From NCBI GenBank assembly GCA_046483985.1, contig JAWOCD010000102.1, forward strand, positions 1-60,416: DNA of 60,416 nt. The letters are read 5' to 3'. The stretch comes from Promethearchaeia archaeon (GTDB lineage: Archaea > Asgardarchaeota > Lokiarchaeia > Sigyniarchaeales > SOKP01). The number at the start of each line of letters is the position of its first letter. The stretch's first letter is position 1. Shown here piece after piece: positions 28,832 to 38,788 of this stretch. Made by a program: the position numbers and the translations under genes. The notes below the pieces were generated by a model. The model was not told the DNA's origin and searched no databases. It saw nothing but the letters and a program-made list of their open reading frames with translations.

Positions 28832-29074
28832 TTAATTTTCTATTAATAAGCCTTTCTTAATTAAATCTTCTATCGTATCATTTAATTGATCTTCGGGTAA
28901 GTTAATCTTTTTATCCTTTTTAATCCCAAGTAGGACATTATATTCCTCAGAATTCAAAAATGCAAATTTATGGGCAACCTCGATGATTTGTTCGGGCATG
29001 CCATCCTCAAATCTTATCCCTCGACCTATTAATTTTTTTACTGGTTTTAATTTTAAATTTATTCGTTCAGTCAT
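28832..29074 (-). CDS. Small hypothetical protein
   Basis: 80-aa ORF with strong AAGGAGGT ribosome-binding site upstream on the - strand. Confidence 0.65.
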   Translation of the reverse strand: MTERINLKLKPVKKLIGRGIRFEDGMPEQIIEVAHKFAFLNSEEYNVLLGIKKDKKINLPEDQLNDTIEDLIKKGLLIEN

Positions 29075-29360
29075 TTTAAAACCTCCTTATTTACTTTTAT
29101 TTATTTGAAAATATATTCTTAGTTTATAAAAATGCATTGAAGTAGAATCAATGTGATACTCCTTAGAACAAAATAAGATCGGAGATTTAAATTTATACCC
29201 CCTTCGATTGGTTAATCAATTATTTAGAAACGAACATTATTGAGAAAGATTTGCATAATTATGACCATCTACACTATCTTTTTTGGACATTTCTCTCATT
29301 TCTGAATCTTCATTCGCTATAAGTTAAAAAAAAATTTAAAAAATTAAAAAGAGATAATTA

Positions 29361-30602
29361 TTAATAATCCTCGTCTCCGATTTTGGAGGGGATTTCTTTC
29401 ACGTCCGCCGCGAGCTGAGCTGCTAATTCCTCTCCTTTTTCTAATTCTTCTGCATTCGGGTAACCCTTGAACGGGAGGGGATCATATAAATCCCACTTCA
29501 TCCTTTCGGTCATTTCATTGAACACTCGCTCTGCTCCACCACTCCAGCCAAAGGAACCAAAGAATAGGGCTTTTTTGTACCAAATATGTTTCTTTTTTAA
29601 TAAGTCCATGAGATATTTCATGGGGGGGAACATATCATACTCATAGGTAGGTGTGCCAATGATTAAACCTGCCGATTTATACACATCAGACAGAATAAAG
29701 GACACATCATCGTTAGGTACCCTATAGACTGTTACGGGGACATTCTGGCTTGAAACTCCTCGGAGAATTGCATTGAGCATAACTTCTGTATTGCCATACA
29801 TTGAGCCCCAAACCACGCAGACTTGCGGTTCGGCGTAATCTTGATTATAACTTGCATATCGCTTATATTTTTTGATCACCACCTCTGGTTTCCCCCTCCA
29901 AACTAAACCGTGCGCCGGAGCCACTATGTCAATATCCACGTCCTCTAATTTCTCTATAGCCTTATCCACTTGGGGGGAAAACATAGAGACAATATTAGCA
30001 TAATAGCGGAGCATTTCACTTTCCCAGTAGGACTTACTCGCGTCAGAGGTTTTATCATCAAAAATCGTGCCGCGATGAACTCCAAAAGCTCCGAAGGCAT
30101 CACCTGAAAACAATGTCTTAGACTCTTCTTCATAGGTAACCATTGTCTCGGGCCAATGGACATTCGGAATCTCTGTAAAATGAAGTTTCTTACCGTTTCC
30201 GAGGTTTAATTCATCATCCGTTCCTACCACAATTACATTATCTTCGATTCCATAAAACTCTCTTAAGAGTTCAGCACCTTTTTTTGTAGTAACAAATTGT
30301 AAGCCAGGGGACAAAGAATTGACCATATAGGTAAATCCCGTATGGTCTGGTTCTAGATGATCCAAAATAACATAATCTATATCTTCAATCTTCACGGGGA
30401 TGGATTCTAAGTTCCGAATGAAAGTGAGGGCTGCCCCGCCCCATTCTCGGACTAATTCAACAACAGCCGTTTTTTCACCTTTCACCACATAGGAATTCAA
30501 TGCAACTCCATGAGGGATCGGCCAAATCCCTTCAAACAAGTCTTCTGTCTGAACGTTCGCGCCAACCCAATAAACGCCATCTTTTAATTTAATTGCACTC
30601 AT
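29361..30602 (-). CDS. fprA: Flavodiiron protein (FprA, O2/NO reductase)
   Basis: HLEPDH, HWPE, FSGDAFG, APAHG, SMYGNTE, FGSFGWSG. Confidence 0.95.
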   Translation of the reverse strand: MSAIKLKDGVYWVGANVQTEDLFEGIWPIPHGVALNSYVVKGEKTAVVELVREWGGAALTFIRNLESIPVKIEDIDYVILDHLEPDHTGFTYMVNSLSPGLQFVTTKKGAELLREFYGIEDNVIVVGTDDELNLGNGKKLHFTEIPNVHWPETMVTYEEESKTLFSGDAFGAFGVHRGTIFDDKTSDASKSYWESEMLRYYANIVSMFSPQVDKAIEKLEDVDIDIVAPAHGLVWRGKPEVVIKKYKRYASYNQDYAEPQVCVVWGSMYGNTEVMLNAILRGVSSQNVPVTVYRVPNDDVSFILSDVYKSAGLIIGTPTYEYDMFPPMKYLMDLLKKKHIWYKKALFFGSFGWSGGAERVFNEMTERMKWDLYDPLPFKGYPNAEELEKGEELAAQLAADVKEIPSKIGDEDY

Positions 30603-30792
30603 AATGTATTTAAAAGTAAAGATAGTCTTATATTAAAATTTAGCTCATATATTTCAAAACCTTAACACAGAAATAGTGGAACAAAACTGGATTTGAAAAA
30701 AAGAAAAAAACTTTTTGAGGATTTGAATGTGAGAGGTTAATTATCTAAAATCATAATGTCTCTCCTCTTAGTAACCAAGAAACCCACTAAAA

Positions 30793-32667
30793 TTAGCTTT
30801 CTTCTAGATTTTTCTCATAGAGAATAAAATGCCGTCCGGGTTTATAGTAATCCTTTATCGCAGTTTTTCCCTTCACTTCTATGGTTTTCCCCTCTTTAGA
30901 GCTGATATTAGTATATCCTGCTTTTTCAAATAATTTATGGGACGGGCTATTTTCTGGATCAACAGTAACTTCAATGCGAGATAAGCCATATTGTTGTAGA
31001 TGATTCTCTAACTTATCAAGTAAACGCGTTCCGATTCCCATACCTTGATATTCTGAGGCTACCCCAATCTGCCAGAAAAAAAAGGTTTTTTCATCTTTTT
31101 GAGACTGGATTCCCCATAGAATCGCAATTATATTATTGTTAGAATCTTCAGCAACAAAACACGTATTTGCACAGTAGCGAAATAAAATTCTATATACATG
31201 CACGGGATAGCACTCTAATATCCTTATTCCTTCCACAAAATCATGAATTTTTATATATTCACTTTCGTTTACGGTTCGAAAATTTAATTCTGGATTTTTC
31301 ATGGGTCTTAATCTTGAGACTTTTGACGCTTTTTTTTCAATTAATTTTTTAGTTCCTATGTCTGGACGATATTTAAAATTTCCCTCAATTTTAGAAATAG
31401 CATTCTCAACTTTCTTATTCGCGTTTTGAATGGAGTTGTTTTTAGCGATAAATGAAATTCCTCGCTCTGAGCCAACATTTAATCGATCTTGATCATCAAG
31501 ACCACAACTGTAGTATATATTTACTCCATTTTGTTGTATCTCCTCTTTATCAAAGGAAACTTCAAGCGTTTGATAAAGTTCTTGAGGATATTTGGGAGGA
31601 ACAATATATTTACATACAGTCGCTTTTGCTTCAAATTGAAGCTCTACCTTTTTTCCATGTAGTAATTTAAAGATGACATCACAGACATTATTTTTCATAA
31701 TAGAGAGCGTATTTATCCATTCAGGATCACCTGGTCTGAAGTTATATTCCACCAGTTTAATGCCATTTTTCGTAATTATAAATTGCCCATAGAGGAATCC
31801 TTGGGTTCTTTCTCCTGTTTCAGAATGATAGGCTTCAAGAGTATCTCTCATTATTCGCATTGCGATATCAAAATCCCTTTGTTGCATAAAGGGAAGCAAA
31901 AAATCAGTCGTTGCATATGAACCCATACTTGCTGTATTCGGTCCGTTGCCTCCGGGTAACAATTTTTTAAAATCTTGTACTGTGGGTGTAGGTAAGACTC
32001 GATTCTCATGTACAAAACATTGGATACTAAATTCCTCTCCCTTCATTCTTTCTTCAATAATAACTTTACTTGTCTCTCCAATATTGTTTACCAACACTCG
32101 ATGTATATATTGTTTTACTTCCTCTGGAGATGCTAGCTGGTCCCCATATACCTTTACTCCAAGCCCTTCTGTAAGACCTATTGGTTTTACTGCGACTTTC
32201 CATTCAAGCTGTTCGGCAAACGTAGTCGCTTCTTCCCCATTATCGAAAACCTCAAAAGTAGGGGCTCCACCAACATTATGACGTCTCATTAATCTCCTGG
32301 TATAGGCTTTATCGGTTTCCAATCGGGCTGCTTCTTTTGTTGGACCGAAACTTGCGATTTCATTTTTCTCTAATTCGTTTATCACACCATTTTTAAGCGG
32401 CTCAGCTGTGGTCACCAGAACTAAATCAACATTTTTCTGCTGTGCAAATCTCACAATCCCGTTAATATCATCGAATTTTCCTAGAGTATAATCATCAACT
32501 AAAGAGATGATTTCGGGATTTTTGGTACTTAAATAAGCACATACCTCTAGATCTTTTTTCTGTTTAATATTCTCAATCGTTATTTGCTCCTTGGACCAAC
32601 TACCCACGATAAGTATTCGGTTTAGGGAGTCGGGAATTAAAGATGAATTACTTTTGGATTTATTCAT
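30793..32667 (-). CDS. Fusion of a divergent PurD-like ATP-grasp ligase and an EctA-type GNAT acetyltransferase
   Basis: aa 1-445 PurD fold ([57 protein letters not shown]); aa ~460-624 GNAT ([30 protein letters not shown]). Confidence 0.85.
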
Positions 32668-34010
32668 TCTTCAGTTTCACTTATCTGCTCATTTGTGTTT
32701 CTTCTTTTTAGACGTTCGCACTTTTCTGGTGTTAAGGGTGAGGGAACCTTCTTATTACTGGAAAGCAATTTAGTAATCCCTATTGCCTTGGAAACAGATT
32801 CAGTCTCCTCTAAATTTAAGCGAAGTGTACAATTCGCACATTCCCTATCACAAAAGTCAGTTTCATACGAATCAGGTTCTTTATAACTACAGATGACGCC
32901 TTCGTAGTTCCGGAGTATAACTTTATTGGTACCCCAAGATATTAAATAATCCGGCATAATGGGTATTTTACCACCGCCCCCTGGAGCGTCAATTACATAC
33001 CGGGGGACAGCAAAACCAGTAGTATGTCCAATTAAATGTTCCAGTATTTCAACACCTTTACTAACGGGAGTGCGGAAATGCTCCAATCCAGGGGAAAGAT
33101 CGCACTGAAATAAATAATATGGTCTTACCCGATTTTGGACAAGTTCATGTACTAATTTCTTCATAATTCGTGGACAATCGTTGATTCCTGCCAATAAAAC
33201 CGATTGATTTCCTAAGGGGATGCCCGCATTTGCTAATTTTTTCAAAGCTGTCCGAGAAGAAGAAGTAATTTCACGTGGGTGATTAAAATGAGTATTTACC
33301 CATAAAGGATGATGTTTCTTTAACATGTTAACTAGATCGTCCGTAATCCTATAAGGTAAAACTGCTGGCATCCTGCTTCCGATCCGTACAATCTCAATGT
33401 GCGGGATCTCGTCTAGTTGACTAAGGATCCAATCGAGGTATTCATTGGATAACATAAGGGGGTCACCTCCAGATAATAGAACATCTCTTACTTGAGGCGT
33501 TTCTCGTAAATAATCTAACCCTTTTTGAATATCCGATTTTGAAGGTATTGAGTTAGGATCGCCCACTTTTCTTTTTCGAGTACAATGTCGGCAATACATT
33601 GAACATCTATTGCTAACAAGAAAAAGCACCCTATCAGGATAACGATGAGTAATGCCTTCGACAGGACTATCCTTTTCTTCTGCCAAGGGATCCTCAACCT
33701 CATAATCCCCCACATTAAGCTCTCTTGGATCTAAAAATGCTTGTTTGTAAAGGGGGTCCATCTCATAATTATCAACATTAATTAATGAGAGATAATAGGG
33801 GGTGATTGACAATGGAAATTTTTGAATTGTTTCTTTTAGTTTTTTCCGTTTTTTACTATTAAATTCAATTCCCATAACCTCTTCAAAGGTTTGAATTGTC
33901 TTAATTGAATGTTCTAATTGCCAATTCCAGTCCCTCCATTTCGCTAAAGTTCCTTCTTTAGCAATTTCTTCAGATATTCTTTTTTGTTTTTTCTTATAAT
34001 CTACCATCAA
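32664..34010 (-). CDS. ablA: Lysine 2,3-aminomutase (radical SAM/PLP), AblA type
   Basis: [19 protein letters not shown] and IDAPGGGGK (both Lys-binding Asp positions retained), C-terminal FCDRECANC; GGAGG RBS upstream. Confidence 0.92.
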
Positions 34011-34527
34011 AATTTCCTCCCTTCTTACTTACGATTTTACGACATTTAAATGATCCCGACTTTTTGGGAATTTTCTAAAAATGAATTAAAAATAAATAGA
34101 GAGATCTCAAATAATCGGGGATTTGAAAGTTGATCTCATCAACAATATCTTGTCTTTTTTGATTCGTTAAATCTTTCTCTATGTGCATCTTATTTTAAAT
34201 CAAGTTAAGATAAAACACTCTATTCCTCTTTATTTATGGTTTGAGCATCCCAACTTAGAACATCAATGAATTGAATCGAGCTATCCAAAAAGGGCAAATA
34301 GCTCAATAATTAAAACATAATGAAATTCTAAAGTTTCCATTTCTTTCTCCGTTTAAAGCATTAGTTAAAAAATCTCTTAAAGTTTCTTCATCTTCAAAAC
34401 ATTAAAATGGGCCTAAGACATATTAAATAACAATATTCCTTACTTTAATATTAATATCATATTACATAAAAATTTACCTTCCTTTAATATCAATTCTCTA
34501 ATTTACAAATATTTCTCTTTTTATTCT

Positions 34528-34556
34528 TTCTGGTATATGAAAATTATATACCAGAA
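34528..34556. promoter_or_regulatory. Perfect 11-bp inverted repeat, candidate operator between divergent ablA and GTPase genes
   Basis: TTCTGGTATAT-gaaaatt-ATATACCAGAA; partial copy AATTATATACC near 34620-34630. Confidence 0.45.
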
Positions 34557-34646
34557 GTAGATAATACCCAGATATTATTCTGATTCATATTCTTTCGTTA
34601 GCATTTATACATATAGAATAATTATATACCTACAATTTGATGAAAT

Positions 34647-35177
34647 ATGGAAAGCTCTCAGATTAATGACTTGGTAAAGATAAGTCTAATCGGTCAACCA
34701 GGGGTAGGAAAAACAACAATGATGAAACTTATCGCAGAGAAGGAAATAAACCGGGTATACTTACCAACCCAAGGTTTCGATCTTAAAACAGTTAAATTCG
34801 GTAATTATAACCTGAAGGTATGGGATTTCGGCGGTCAAAAAAATTATCTCAAACGTTATATGAAAGAATACTTAATTGGTTCTGATCTCGTGTTTATTGT
34901 CACCGATTCAAGTCCGCGAAATGTACTAACATCTCGTGAGTTAATCGATTTTACCAATAATATCGTGGGAAGCGAATGCAAAATAGTAGCAGTGGCCAAT
35001 AAACAAGATTTAGTCAAAAAAGATGGACGAATGAGCTCAAGTCGTGTAGAAGATGTGCTTCACGTCGAAACTTTAGGTTTAACCGCGATTGATCCTTCTC
35101 AACGCAGTAAATTAATGAAACACATAAAAACAGAACTTGAAAATGTATTAAAAAGGAAGATAAAGGTGAATAATTAA
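34647..35177 (+). CDS. Small GTPase (Arf/Rab-like)
   Basis: GQPGVGKT, PTQG, WDFGGQ, NKQD, TA. Confidence 0.92.
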   Translation: MESSQINDLVKISLIGQPGVGKTTMMKLIAEKEINRVYLPTQGFDLKTVKFGNYNLKVWDFGGQKNYLKRYMKEYLIGSDLVFIVTDSSPRNVLTSRELIDFTNNIVGSECKIVAVANKQDLVKKDGRMSSSRVEDVLHVETLGLTAIDPSQRSKLMKHIKTELENVLKRKIKVNN

Positions 35178-35179
35178 GC

Positions 35180-35740
35180 ATGAGATTTGAGCAGAATGAA
35201 CTCTTTGGGGCGGCTTTAATCGGGTTTGATATGATCGATGGTCCATTTCTGAAATGGAAAAAGGAATTTGATAACTCTGTAAATTCGGTAAATCTTAACG
35301 ATTTTGCCATGAACTTTTATCTTGCCTTCCGAGGAGGAAACTCCGGAAAAAAACCAAGAGCAATATTATACGATAATTTTTATATTGTTGCCTTTCCAAG
35401 GGATTTGGAATTGTGCTGTCTCTTTATGAAACCACGAGGTATTGAAAAGAATATCAATGAATTAAACAAGGTCGCGAATCGGATAATTAATAAGGTAGAA
35501 GTTGAAAAAGCAAAAGAAGAGGAAGAGGGCAAACAAGAAACTGACGAGGATACCGCTGAGGAAATCAAGCGACTCATTATTAACTTGCTGAATGGAACCA
35601 AAATGACAACCCCTGAATTACGAAAATATTTTAAATTGAGCAACTCAGGAATTTGGAAAATTATGTCTGATTTGGAAAGCGCTCAGAAAATAAAACGGGT
35701 CGATAAAGACGGCAGAGCAATTGTCTGGACCGCAAACTAA
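35180..35740 (+). CDS. Longin/uDENN-like domain fused to C-terminal winged-helix HTH
   Basis: LIGFDMIDGP N-terminus; IINLL..MTTPELRKYFKLSNSGIWKIMSDLE..KI wHTH; 2-bp gap after the GTPase. Confidence 0.65.
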   Translation: MRFEQNELFGAALIGFDMIDGPFLKWKKEFDNSVNSVNLNDFAMNFYLAFRGGNSGKKPRAILYDNFYIVAFPRDLELCCLFMKPRGIEKNINELNKVANRIINKVEVEKAKEEEEGKQETDEDTAEEIKRLIINLLNGTKMTTPELRKYFKLSNSGIWKIMSDLESAQKIKRVDKDGRAIVWTAN

Positions 35741-35767
35741 TTTTTTTATTCTCCTTATTTTTTTGTT

Positions 35768-36577
35768 TTATCTGTGTCTATGTTTCCAGCCTTCCCTTTT
35801 GGTTTTATAGCGTGAAAACATCATATAACAGATATCTGGTAATTCTTTGTCTTGATTATTAAGGGTAATATAGCGTAGAATATGATTGATGGTAAAAATC
35901 GCTACTAATTCAATATGATAACTCCCGATTTTTTCTAGATTTTCCCCCGAGTAGGAAATATCCAAGCCCCTTTTATTTTGATATTTAATTTCCACAAATA
36001 TACCGGGAAATACTTCCTTTTGAATCATCCAGCCATTAGAAGCTTTTTCGACTTTAGCGCCTAAGAATTGTTCGAGCAATTCTTTATCTCCCTCTTTTAG
36101 CAATCTGAAAGGGTCTTTTCGCTGGACTAGGACTTTTTCCATTAATTCAGTTTTTGTATCGTAGTCTTTTTCAAAAGGTTCTTGATCTTCAATAGAACGT
36201 TTTAAAAACTCTAGAACAACATCGATATATGTTACAGTATCCTCTCCTGGTACCATTCGTACATGGTCACCCGAATATAAAAACTTAAGCTCGCCTTCGA
36301 TCATATCACCGAATTCGTTCCCAAAATATGTGTATAGAATGTGAATATTCACTTCAGGGAACATTTCAATTGTAATTGTCCAATCTTCGCTAAAGTCTTC
36401 CAAGTTTTCCAGCTCTGCTCCAATATCTTCCTGCACAATTTGCTCAAGCATCTCCATATCGATATCTTTAAATAATGACCATTTTGCCTTACTAAAATCT
36501 TCTAATTCTTTCCCATGTGGTCCAGTTTTCCCGGTCGCATCTATCTGACCTACGGTATAATATTTCTGACTTGTCAT
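35768..36577 (-). CDS. DUF3786-like protein with internal duplication
   Basis: W.I..EMFPEVNI...EF...FLYSG...VPGED and a second copy WMIQKEVFPGIFV...YSG. Confidence 0.55.
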   Translation of the reverse strand: MTSQKYYTVGQIDATGKTGPHGKELEDFSKAKWSLFKDIDMEMLEQIVQEDIGAELENLEDFSEDWTITIEMFPEVNIHILYTYFGNEFGDMIEGELKFLYSGDHVRMVPGEDTVTYIDVVLEFLKRSIEDQEPFEKDYDTKTELMEKVLVQRKDPFRLLKEGDKELLEQFLGAKVEKASNGWMIQKEVFPGIFVEIKYQNKRGLDISYSGENLEKIGSYHIELVAIFTINHILRYITLNNQDKELPDICYMMFSRYKTKREGWKHRHR

Positions 36578-36585
36578 ATATTAAA

Positions 36586-37920
36586 TTATATTCCTCTTTT
36601 TTTGAATTTTGCGATAAAAAAACCAAGAGTGTTCTGCAGAGTAGGAAAAAGCCTTCCAGTTCCTTGAATCGTCTTCCCCCCCATTATATAACTAGAGGAT
36701 AACCATTTCGGTAAATTTAAGGGTTCTAATTGATCCCGAAATTTCAGCATCTGGAATTCTGCCTCTTCTGGGTAAAGAGAACAAACTGAATACACCAAAA
36801 CACCTTCATTTTTTAGCAAATGTAAGGCACTTTTTAACAGATTTTCTTGGAAGATAAGATTTTGATTAAGAAACTCCCAATTTTGTCTCCATTTAAGTTC
36901 CGGATTTGACACAAAGGTTCCACTGCCCGTGCAAGGCGCATCTACGAGAATTCTATCAAATTTTACACCCTCTCGGATAGGCGGAGAAATTGCATCAGCA
37001 TTCAGAGAAACAACTTGCTCAGCACTTAACTTATTGAGTAAATTTCTTGATTGGATAATTCTTTCAAAAGAGAAATCATTAGCAATAATTAAAGCTTCAT
37101 TATTTGATTTTTGAGCCATTAAACTGGTTTTAATTCCCGGAGCCGCACACATATCGAGCAAAAAATCCCCAGATTGCGGCTTCAAGCATTTTATAACCAC
37201 TGAAGAGGCTTTATCATGAAAGAGAATATACCCTTGGCGATATAATTCACTCTCAAGCAAAGTCGTTTTGTATTTTTTGGGGATATAGATAATCTCAGGA
37301 AGATGCTCATCGAATATGAGATCTTTATCGCTTAAATTTAGAAATTTGGTGAGTCTTTTGATGACCTCCTCGTTCGATATTTTTTGATTAAGATCATTAA
37401 TCCGAAGCGATTTAAATGGTGCATTTCCCATTTTATCCATATATTCGTATTCCTTTTGAATTCGATTTAAAGAAAGATAGTCTTTAAGTCTATCAATTGT
37501 AAACGAAGGAATAGAACTCTTGATACTGAGGATTTCTTTCCTTTCTTTATGTTGAAGGGCCTTTTTCATGGAAAAAGAATTGACATTTTGTATAAATTGA
37601 TTAATTAGTTTCTTCAAATCAGAATTGAATATTGTTCCTTTTTCCAGTTCATTTTTTAGTCGATCTAATTTTGCTCGCTCATAATAAAACCGATAGCTGA
37701 GATAAAACAGAGTTGCCTTGACGGATGGATCTTGTACGTGACCAGTTCCCATATACCTTAGCGTCTTGTTAATAATATAATTGAGCGTATTCCAATGTCG
37801 GACGATTTCATTGTAATAATGGAGGATAAAGGAATTAATGCGAGCATTTGGAGGTAATTGATAGATATCGTTCGCTAAATATTTCTGGACATGTTTAATC
37901 AACCGAGTTATCTGCATCAT
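36586..37920 (-). CDS. RsmB/NOP2 family RNA m5C methyltransferase
   Basis: DMCAAPGIKT, ILVDAPCTGSG, LVYSVCS, GFFIAK. Confidence 0.92.
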   Translation of the reverse strand: MMQITRLIKHVQKYLANDIYQLPPNARINSFILHYYNEIVRHWNTLNYIINKTLRYMGTGHVQDPSVKATLFYLSYRFYYERAKLDRLKNELEKGTIFNSDLKKLINQFIQNVNSFSMKKALQHKERKEILSIKSSIPSFTIDRLKDYLSLNRIQKEYEYMDKMGNAPFKSLRINDLNQKISNEEVIKRLTKFLNLSDKDLIFDEHLPEIIYIPKKYKTTLLESELYRQGYILFHDKASSVVIKCLKPQSGDFLLDMCAAPGIKTSLMAQKSNNEALIIANDFSFERIIQSRNLLNKLSAEQVVSLNADAISPPIREGVKFDRILVDAPCTGSGTFVSNPELKWRQNWEFLNQNLIFQENLLKSALHLLKNEGVLVYSVCSLYPEEAEFQMLKFRDQLEPLNLPKWLSSSYIMGGKTIQGTGRLFPTLQNTLGFFIAKFKKRGI

Positions 37921-38050: not shown

Positions 38051-38788
38051 TTGATTCCAATTATTATTGACGGACGGTCAAATGTGGGTAAAACTTCGTT
38101 AGTTAACCATATGCTTAATCCCACTAGGAGTAAAAAACCAGAAAATACTATTGGAATTAATTTTGGACTTAAAAACTATTTTCTCTTCAATCAAAATGTC
38201 TCTGCACTTTTCTGGGACTTAGCTGGTAAGCCAAAATATGATTTTCTTAGAGTGAGTTTTTATAAAAGAGCAGCTTGTTTAATTTTGGTCTGCGATGTAA
38301 CCCTTCGAAAAACGTCCAAGCGGTTTGATTACTTTATCGAACTTGCAGACGAGATGGGGCTGAATAGGGATAAGATTATTCTCTGCGGGAGTAAATCAGA
38401 TTTGGATAAACGAACGCGATTAACCACTGAAAAATTAACCCAATTAGCCAATACCTACGGTCTGTCATGTAGTATCCCAACATCTATAGTATCGAATACA
38501 AACGTGGACATTTTATTTGAATATGCACTAACCTTAGGATTATATTCCTTGGGAAGGATTAAAGAATCCCAATTTAGTTTTTACAAAAAGAATTTACAAG
38601 AGATCTTTAAATATAATTTTAAATCATTTCCCCAGGAGAAACGAAAATGTTGGGTATGCAAAAGAACGATCTATTTCGATGAATTTATCGAATCCAACTC
38701 TTTCTTATCCAATAAACGCCTCAAAAAGTTATGGACTTCCGATTATCTTGAATTTTATTGTTGTTCTTGCTATAAGGAGAAATCTTAG
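38051..38788 (+). CDS. Divergent Rab-like GTPase with C-terminal Cys-rich zinc finger
   Basis: GRSNVGKT, TIG, WDLAGK, SKSD, TS; tail CWVC...YCCSC. Confidence 0.8.
   Translation: MIPIIIDGRSNVGKTSLVNHMLNPTRSKKPENTIGINFGLKNYFLFNQNVSALFWDLAGKPKYDFLRVSFYKRAACLILVCDVTLRKTSKRFDYFIELADEMGLNRDKIILCGSKSDLDKRTRLTTEKLTQLANTYGLSCSIPTSIVSNTNVDILFEYALTLGLYSLGRIKESQFSFYKKNLQEIFKYNFKSFPQEKRKCWVCKRTIYFDEFIESNSFLSNKRLKKLWTSDYLEFYCCSCYKEKS

Follow-up and report, generated by a model that had tools for sequence, protein, structure and literature searches.

What is made by a gene pair in which a lysine 2,3-aminomutase gene runs directly into the gene of what looks like a purine biosynthesis enzyme? The question is raised by a two-gene unit on the minus strand of contig JAWOCD010000102.1 (assembly GCA_046483985.1, Promethearchaeia archaeon, Asgardarchaeota), of which positions 1 to 60,416 are considered here as the window. 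The first gene is ablA, which encodes the aminomutase, and the second encodes a protein of 624 amino acids (aa) that joins a PurD-like ATP-grasp ligase to an acetyltransferase of the GNAT superfamily. We propose that both genes constitute a self-contained cassette with three activities, which probably produces an N-acetylated beta-lysine amide or dipeptide, most likely a compatible solute.

Both open reading frames (ORFs) exist on the minus strand, and they share the start/stop overlap ATGA (32664-32667, (-), read from the sequence), as the first-pass annotation of the window had it. In homologous loci, ablA and the ligase gene likewise abut closely or overlap. The aminomutase ORF is listed as 32664-34010 (-), 448 aa from a TTG codon. 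An ATG at 34007, one codon inside, is the likelier start, since a candidate Shine-Dalgarno-like GGAGG (34016-34020, (-), read from the sequence) stands 8 nucleotides (nt) upstream of it. The likely gene therefore comprises 32664-34007 (-) and encodes 447 aa. Its partner (ORF 30793-32667, (-)) is indeed the fusion that had been described. The domains GARS_N, GARS_A and GARS_C span residues 17-442, within a ligase domain of residues 1-446 (31330-32667, (-)) that is supported by these domains, by TIGR00877, and by the AlphaFold2 (AF2) model with its Foldseek matches. An interdomain linker follows (residues ~447-462; 31282-31329, (-)), where the predicted local distance difference test score (pLDDT) falls to 65 over residues 451-460. 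It marks the same place at which Methanoperedens and others split the gene into two ORFs. The GNAT domain (residues ~463-620, or ~463-624 up to the end of the protein and, together with the TAA stop, 30793-31281, (-)) is recognised by PF00583, TIGR02406 and EctA structures.

The upstream protein is an AblA-type lysine 2,3-aminomutase (LAM), a radical S-adenosylmethionine (SAM) and pyridoxal phosphate (PLP) enzyme. It scores 739 bits against TIGR03820, the equivalog model of AblA (cut-off 525); its scores on the models of glutamate, arginine and EpmB aminomutases all stay below the respective cut-offs (EpmB 242 bits vs 369). The alignment to Clostridium LAM (2A5H, E = 2e-146) shows that the CSMYCRHC motif with its CxxxCxxC cluster and the GGGGK motif of the PLP lysine are kept. 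The two Asp residues that hold the epsilon-ammonium group of lysine in 2A5H, D293 and D330, correspond to D304 and D341 and are both retained. The earlier statement that the enzyme is not the glutamate mutase agrees with this alignment and with the score on the glutamate model. The cassette ablA is the sole KamA-family gene of the host genome. A role in lysine fermentation was considered and rejected, as neither the window nor the related loci that were inspected contain kamDE/kdd/kce-type genes.

The ligase domain, in turn, closely resembles PurD. It scores 323.7 bits against the PurD equivalog TIGR00877 (cut-off 288, a narrow margin). The AF2 model (pLDDT 90.2, predicted template modelling score, pTM, 0.72) contains the N-B-A-C four-domain fold of PurD, and the top 15 Foldseek matches of this predicted structure are all PurD structures, with template modelling (TM) scores by target of 0.81-0.90 (0.87-0.90 for the best hits). 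Most of the best-matching clusters in a protein search are named phosphoribosylamine--glycine ligase in public records. Nonetheless, the cassette ligase is not the PurD of the cell. The host genome (97% complete) harbours a canonical purD on contig 85, with 436 bits vs 325 bits for the cassette copy in the same genome search. Among five other carriers from five phyla, four possess a canonical purD (415-509 bits) together with the paralogue (291-330 bits), and in the fifth, a member of the Methanocellaceae, the second PurD copy is divergent (235 bits, below the cut-off). In this genome (G045, contig 15, L082) the sole other PurD-like gene has a branch length of 2.0. In a maximum-likelihood tree built from 62 sequences, all 45 sampled paralogues fall into one clade (SH-like approximate likelihood-ratio test, SH-aLRT, 100; stem of 1.13 changes per site). 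The clade lies apart from canonical PurD and joins the archaeal PurDs, not the bacterial ones. Identities are 35-37% to archaeal and 25-27% to bacterial PurDs. The canonical PurD of the host clusters with the PurDs of its own family; its gene is vertically inherited and separate from the cassette copy. Genome and tree thus agree with the first-pass annotation, which had called the domain a repurposed PurD, and the paralogues appear to be a distinct family, a putatively neofunctionalised PurD derivative of archaeal type. All checks proposed in that annotation which can be run in silico, including those on the linkage to ablA described below, gave the outcome it had predicted.

What has changed in the ligase can be read from residue roles mapped from the literature on Aquifex PurD and human GARS (PMC8880213, PMC2978367) and from printed alignments. 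The ligands of ATP (K120, K161, E205, E212, K234), of Mg (E307, N309) and of glycine and the acyl phosphate (D232, R311, D314, E316) are kept family-wide. The last four residues are the glycine ligands D217, R292, D295 and E297 of human GARS, with the equivalents D212, R287 and E292 in Aquifex PurD (PMC8880213, PMC2978367). Twelve positions are conserved within each group, yet differ between canonical PurD and the paralogues: G to W24, R to K26, GPE to TTA86-88, V to A159, K to L169, R to K235, GG to AS246-247, A to W317 and A to S387. Further changes are G/A to D/E167 and G/S to E401, the latter directly before the retained Arg of the C domain. W24/K26, TTA86-88, D/E167-G-L169, AS246-247 and E401 occur in 41-45 of the 45 paralogues, and the canonical residues in all 16 of 16 PurDs. 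The changes are located in the GGREH loop, the short-helix cap, the lid of the B domain, and the proposed site of the phosphate of phosphoribosylamine (PRA). The GPE short-helix cap holds an anion in PurD crystals, and the PRA binding mode in PurD itself is modelled only (PMC8880213, PMC2978367). Because the ATP, Mg and glycine ligands are kept and the loops on the PRA side are replaced, the acyl-phosphate chemistry appears to be intact and the nucleotide side to be rebuilt.

The first-pass annotation had reported altered motifs on the substrate side of the ligase. The differences it quoted are all present, although the change of QDHK to QDFK is not diagnostic, as a canonical PurD of the host's family also has QDFK. 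Likewise, a remodelled substrate side holds for phosphoribosylamine, whose side is replaced family-wide, but not for glycine, whose binding residues are all retained. We note that Gly at both positions 167 and 246 is found only in members with an atypical partner (L035/L037 and L063), which hints that these positions may touch the product of the partner enzyme.

The GNAT domain comprises ~160 residues (PF00583, 65 bits). Its nearest curated model is EctA (TIGR02406, 62.4 bits, below the cut-off of 120.6), and the nearest solved GNATs are the EctA structures 6SK1 and 6SJY (E = 7e-13), which have the TCxxAE, FxWQ and TVxPxN blocks in common with it; the resemblance to EctA had been noticed before and is borne out. 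The acetyl-CoA motif Q541-x-x-G544-x-G546 is conserved in the family. Judged by its sequence, the domain is EctA-like, yet not EctA. Nor is it an acetyltransferase of the AblB type, again as first described: the AblB model TIGR03827, which matches the AblB of Methanoperedens at 348 bits, has no match to the 624-aa protein at E<=0.01 and none in the whole host genome (97% complete). A search of the host genome for EctC, the ectoine synthase, gave no match, but control genomes were silent too.

The combination is not confined to the Asgard host. In a word-indexed protein search, fusions of a PurD-like ligase with a GNAT are common: of the best 120 matches, ~90 clusters are fused and 28 are unfused. 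Species-representative genomes were scanned with family motifs and the neighbours were assigned by tblastn, which resulted in 50 loci; they are distributed over 48 species genomes besides that of the host, and these represent more than ten phyla. Bacterial carriers belong to Calditrichota, Acidobacteriota, Atribacterota, Omnitrophota, Bacteroidota, KSB1, Elusimicrobiota, Planctomycetota, Chloroflexota, Gemmatimonadota and Aminicenantes, and archaeal carriers to Methanoperedens, Methanocellaceae and Thermoplasmatales. Wherever the sequence allows, the GNAT is fused to the ligase or encoded directly downstream of it. An AblA-type gene lies beside the ligase in 33 of the 50 loci, and a divergent KamA with both Asp residues in three more, such that the adjacency to ablA/kamA extends to 36 of 50 loci; 12 loci have no KamA neighbour and two are uninformative. 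In an unclassified bacterial metagenome-assembled genome (L050:5916-8540), AblA and the ligase are encoded by a single ORF of 890 aa, followed by the GNAT as a separate gene. This fusion is a Rosetta-stone link between both activities. In all five genomes without adjacency that were examined, an AblA-type gene is found elsewhere (four of them at 762-784 bits). For example, in Calditrichaceae and KSB1 (L083:1447-4245, L085:53-2802) ablA lies apart from the ligase-GNAT gene, which stands alone, and is coupled to the gene of a sodium:solute symporter (SSF). The contigs that encode proteins 87% and 56% identical to the one described here carry the same pair of ablA and fusion gene. On the latter contig (L093:920-2233) ablA is called as two pieces, a radical SAM protein of 277 aa and a LAM_C protein of 156 aa, which may reflect a frameshift or an assembly error.

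Within the phylum the cassette is rare: in a sample of 400 genomes (134 of the host's family) a full-length match occurs in the host genome alone, and one genome of the host's order contains cassette fragments. Among the Methanoperedenaceae, 8 of 53 species genomes harbour it. We infer from the distribution and the tree, not from base composition (the cassette has a G+C content of 0.33-0.39, not distinct from its flanks), that the cassette is accessory and has probably spread by horizontal transfer, crossing between archaea and bacteria.

Several neighbours of the cassette in other genomes are related to osmotic stress. In 11 loci, spread over several lineages, a gene for MscS lies beside it; five loci have Na/H exchangers and four have SBP_bac_3-type ATP-binding cassette (ABC) importers nearby; one locus also contains a universal stress protein (Usp), dapB and a trehalose-phosphatase/glycosyltransferase pair. 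Four Methanoperedens loci have the order MscS-kamA-ablB-ligase-GNAT, followed by a KamA-family gene. The genes MscS-kamA-ablB are salt-induced in Ca. Methanoperedens, and the genes downstream were called 'of unknown function' (PMC11337218). The KamA-family radical SAM protein at the end of these loci (L007:9858-11672 in Ca. Methanoperedens) has 604 aa with an N-terminal extension of ~190 aa, and is also present at L041, L042, L045, L047 and L066 and, unlinked, in L089 and L090. It has Lys and Asn in place of the two lysine-binding Asp residues of LAM, presumably the pattern of glutamate 2,3-aminomutase, and scores 262 bits (cut-off 650) on the model of that enzyme. The protein may supply beta-glutamate or another beta-amino acid.

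The genes suggest the following pathway, from its substrates and the sequence of its reactions to its product and osmotic role. AblA would convert L-lysine into beta-lysine. The PurD-derived domain would use ATP to activate an amino-acid carboxylate as acyl phosphate, with phosphoribosylamine no longer accepted, and would form an amide in which beta-lysine takes part. A free amino group would then carry an acetyl group from the fused GNAT of EctA type, by which the extra positive charge is removed. The simplest products would be glycyl- or N-acetyl-beta-lysine conjugates, an acetyl-beta-lysine amide, or an acetylated beta-lysine lactam, and the product would serve as compatible solute. Charge bookkeeping favours a net-neutral product of one ligation and one acetylation, that is, an acetylated dipeptide of the glycyl-beta-lysine type or an acetylated lactam; net neutrality would suit a compatible solute. 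Because the glycine ligands are retained, glycine as donor and beta-lysine as acceptor would seem to be the most conservative evolutionary path. The cassette itself would have arisen from an archaeal-type PurD and spread horizontally, and the Asgard host would have gained an accessory trait.

It is quite unlikely that the ligase works without an external amine, by an ATP-driven cyclisation of beta-lysine or acetyl-beta-lysine to an acetamido-caprolactam or a seven-membered ectoine-like ring. In this case W24 and W317, both replacements of Gly or Ala by Trp, would fill the old phosphoribosylamine pocket. If true, cyclisation would define a new class of cyclic compatible solute in anaerobes, from Asgard archaea to Atribacterota.

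The proposed synthesis of an acetylated beta-lysine conjugate has to be weighed against four other explanations. That the fusion protein is a true second PurD, a glycinamide ribonucleotide (GAR) synthetase isozyme attached to an acetyltransferase and only incidentally adjacent to ablA, would account for the score above the TIGR00877 cut-off (323.7 > 288), for the PurD fold and for the retained ligands of glycine and ATP. It is hardly credible in view of the separate canonical purD in the host and in four of five other carriers, the clade with its long stem, the family-wide replacement of the loops on the PRA side, and the conserved linkage and fusion, in archaea and bacteria alike, to AblA and the GNAT; moreover, none of the loci considered here lies among purine genes. 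The ligase might also load beta-lysine onto a protein or a small carrier, in the manner of EF-P beta-lysylation or of ATP-grasp chemistry of the LysW/RimK type. KamA-family enzymes do feed EF-P beta-lysylation, and the ATP-grasp enzymes RimK and LysX modify proteins. But the aminomutase is of the AblA type, not EpmB (242 vs 369 bits), the cassette lacks a conserved small carrier gene, and the ligase descends from PurD rather than from the RimK/LysX family, which makes such a function very unlikely. A third explanation regards the EctA-like GNAT as a non-orthologous replacement of AblB, with the PurD-like domain relegated to an accessory task, for example in regulation, in recycling or in a different reaction. 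The host genome lacks AblB, as do most carriers beside the cassette, and the acetylation by EctA, at the terminal amine of its diamino acid substrate, has the same regiochemistry as that by AblB. The catalytic ATP-grasp residues are, however, invariant in 45 members, which argues that the ligase is active; every informative locus has the GNAT together with the ligase, and L050 joins the latter to AblA in one protein; and AblB coexists with the ligase-GNAT pair in the four Methanoperedens loci. We therefore consider a mere replacement of AblB unlikely.

A less remote alternative, though still an improbable one, is a beta-lysine metabolite other than an osmolyte, for instance a signal, a polyamine-like compound, an antibiotic-like peptide or a building block of the cell envelope. 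ATP-grasp ligases make many secondary metabolites, the cassette is patchy and horizontally mobile, and the host window contains no osmotic-stress neighbours. Against this, the cassette is minimal (2-3 genes) and has no conserved genes for a non-ribosomal peptide synthetase (NRPS), an exporter or immunity, and it recurs beside genes for MscS, Na/H exchangers, Usp and solute importers. The synthesis of an acetylated beta-lysine conjugate as compatible solute is probable on balance, and several observations count against it. In the host window, small GTPases, RsmB and FprA take the place of osmotic-stress genes. Some Methanoperedens also hold AblB, so that a second acetyltransferase looks partly redundant. 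The protein passes the cut-off of the NCBI PurD equivalog and a residual GAR synthetase activity is possible, and the intact glycine-binding residues fit beta-lysine either as acyl donor or as amine acceptor. Twelve of 48 carriers have no KamA gene beside the cassette. Finally, the ligase-GNAT of the basal locus L063 pairs with a threonine-synthase-like PLP enzyme and may take other diamino acids. At this locus (L063:6612-9446, Euryarchaeota archaeon SCGC AAA252-I15), the overlapping upstream PLP enzyme (PRK06381, 368 bits) replaces AblA, and the ligase has canonical-like Gly at positions 167, 246 and 247; L063 may represent a version with another diamino acid as substrate.

Among known systems, the AblA/AblB pathway to N-epsilon-acetyl-beta-lysine of methanogens and Ca. 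Methanoperedens (PMC11337218) has the same AblA-type first enzyme, followed by a GNAT. MscS neighbours are common to both, and the four Methanoperedens loci place the new genes directly after kamA-ablB. The cassette differs in that its GNAT is a small EctA-like domain instead of AblB, and in that it adds an ATP-grasp ligase that is neither present nor needed in the known pathway. PurD (TIGR00877; 2YW2, 2YS6, 2QK4, 1GSO) has the same four-domain fold and the same ligands of ATP, Mg and glycine. In the cassette ligase, however, the GGREH motif, the GPE cap, the lid Lys, the GG loop and the GGR motif are replaced, and it is fused to GNAT or AblA, horizontally distributed, and a second copy beside canonical purD. 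EctA, the L-2,4-diaminobutyrate N-gamma-acetyltransferase (TIGR02406, 6SK1), provides the nearest model and structures to the GNAT, and for either enzyme a diamino acid is the expected substrate, within a solute pathway; the cassette GNAT is partnered with AblA and the ligase, not with EctB and EctC. The best functional analogy is Ngg of the N-acetylglutaminylglutamine amide (NAGGN) pathway (TIGR03103), which combines GNAT and ATP-grasp in one polypeptide for an N-acetylated dipeptide osmolyte. Ngg is analogous rather than homologous: the cassette protein scores 37.9 bits vs 569, with its GNAT portion only, the domain order is reversed, the ATP-grasp belongs to another subfamily, and the substrate of Ngg is glutamine, not beta-lysine. 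The first-pass annotation knew of no described system with this architecture, and a full-text literature search found no publication that describes the PurD-like ligase-GNAT family or the cassette.

With respect to its surroundings in the window, the unit looks bicistronic because a T-rich tract (T7CT7C; 30695-30710, (-), read from the sequence) lies ~85 nt past the stop, a candidate archaeal terminator that would close the unit, and because 190 nt with an AT-rich, TATA-like stretch separate the cassette from the next gene. The latter (29361-30602, (-)) encodes a flavodiiron FprA-like protein that consists of metallo-beta-lactamase and flavodoxin domains, and seems to be preceded by a separate promoter region. 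The ENA contig of the 87%-identical copy, too, has a beta-lactamase-fold gene after the cassette. An Rfam scan of 29000-36000 (E<=0.1) gave no match, and hence no riboswitch among the 636 nt that precede ablA. Small GTPases of the Arf/Roc/Ras families (34647-35177, (+), and 38051-38788, (+)) flank the cassette, together with an RsmB-like gene (36586-37920) whose named homologues are from Promethearchaeota and other Asgard archaea. Since such Asgard-type genes flank both sides, the cassette belongs to an Asgard contig.

The family would represent a core purine enzyme that was duplicated, rebuilt in its nucleotide-side pocket, and joined to an acetyltransferase and, in one case, to a radical-SAM aminomutase. 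Archaea and bacteria of more than ten phyla seem to have exchanged the PurD-derived cassette. The PurD label of its members is an annotation error, by which metabolic reconstructions can wrongly credit an organism with purine synthesis. The cassette points instead to an undescribed metabolite derived from beta-lysine, probably a salt-stress solute of anaerobic sediment organisms, including Ca. Methanoperedens.

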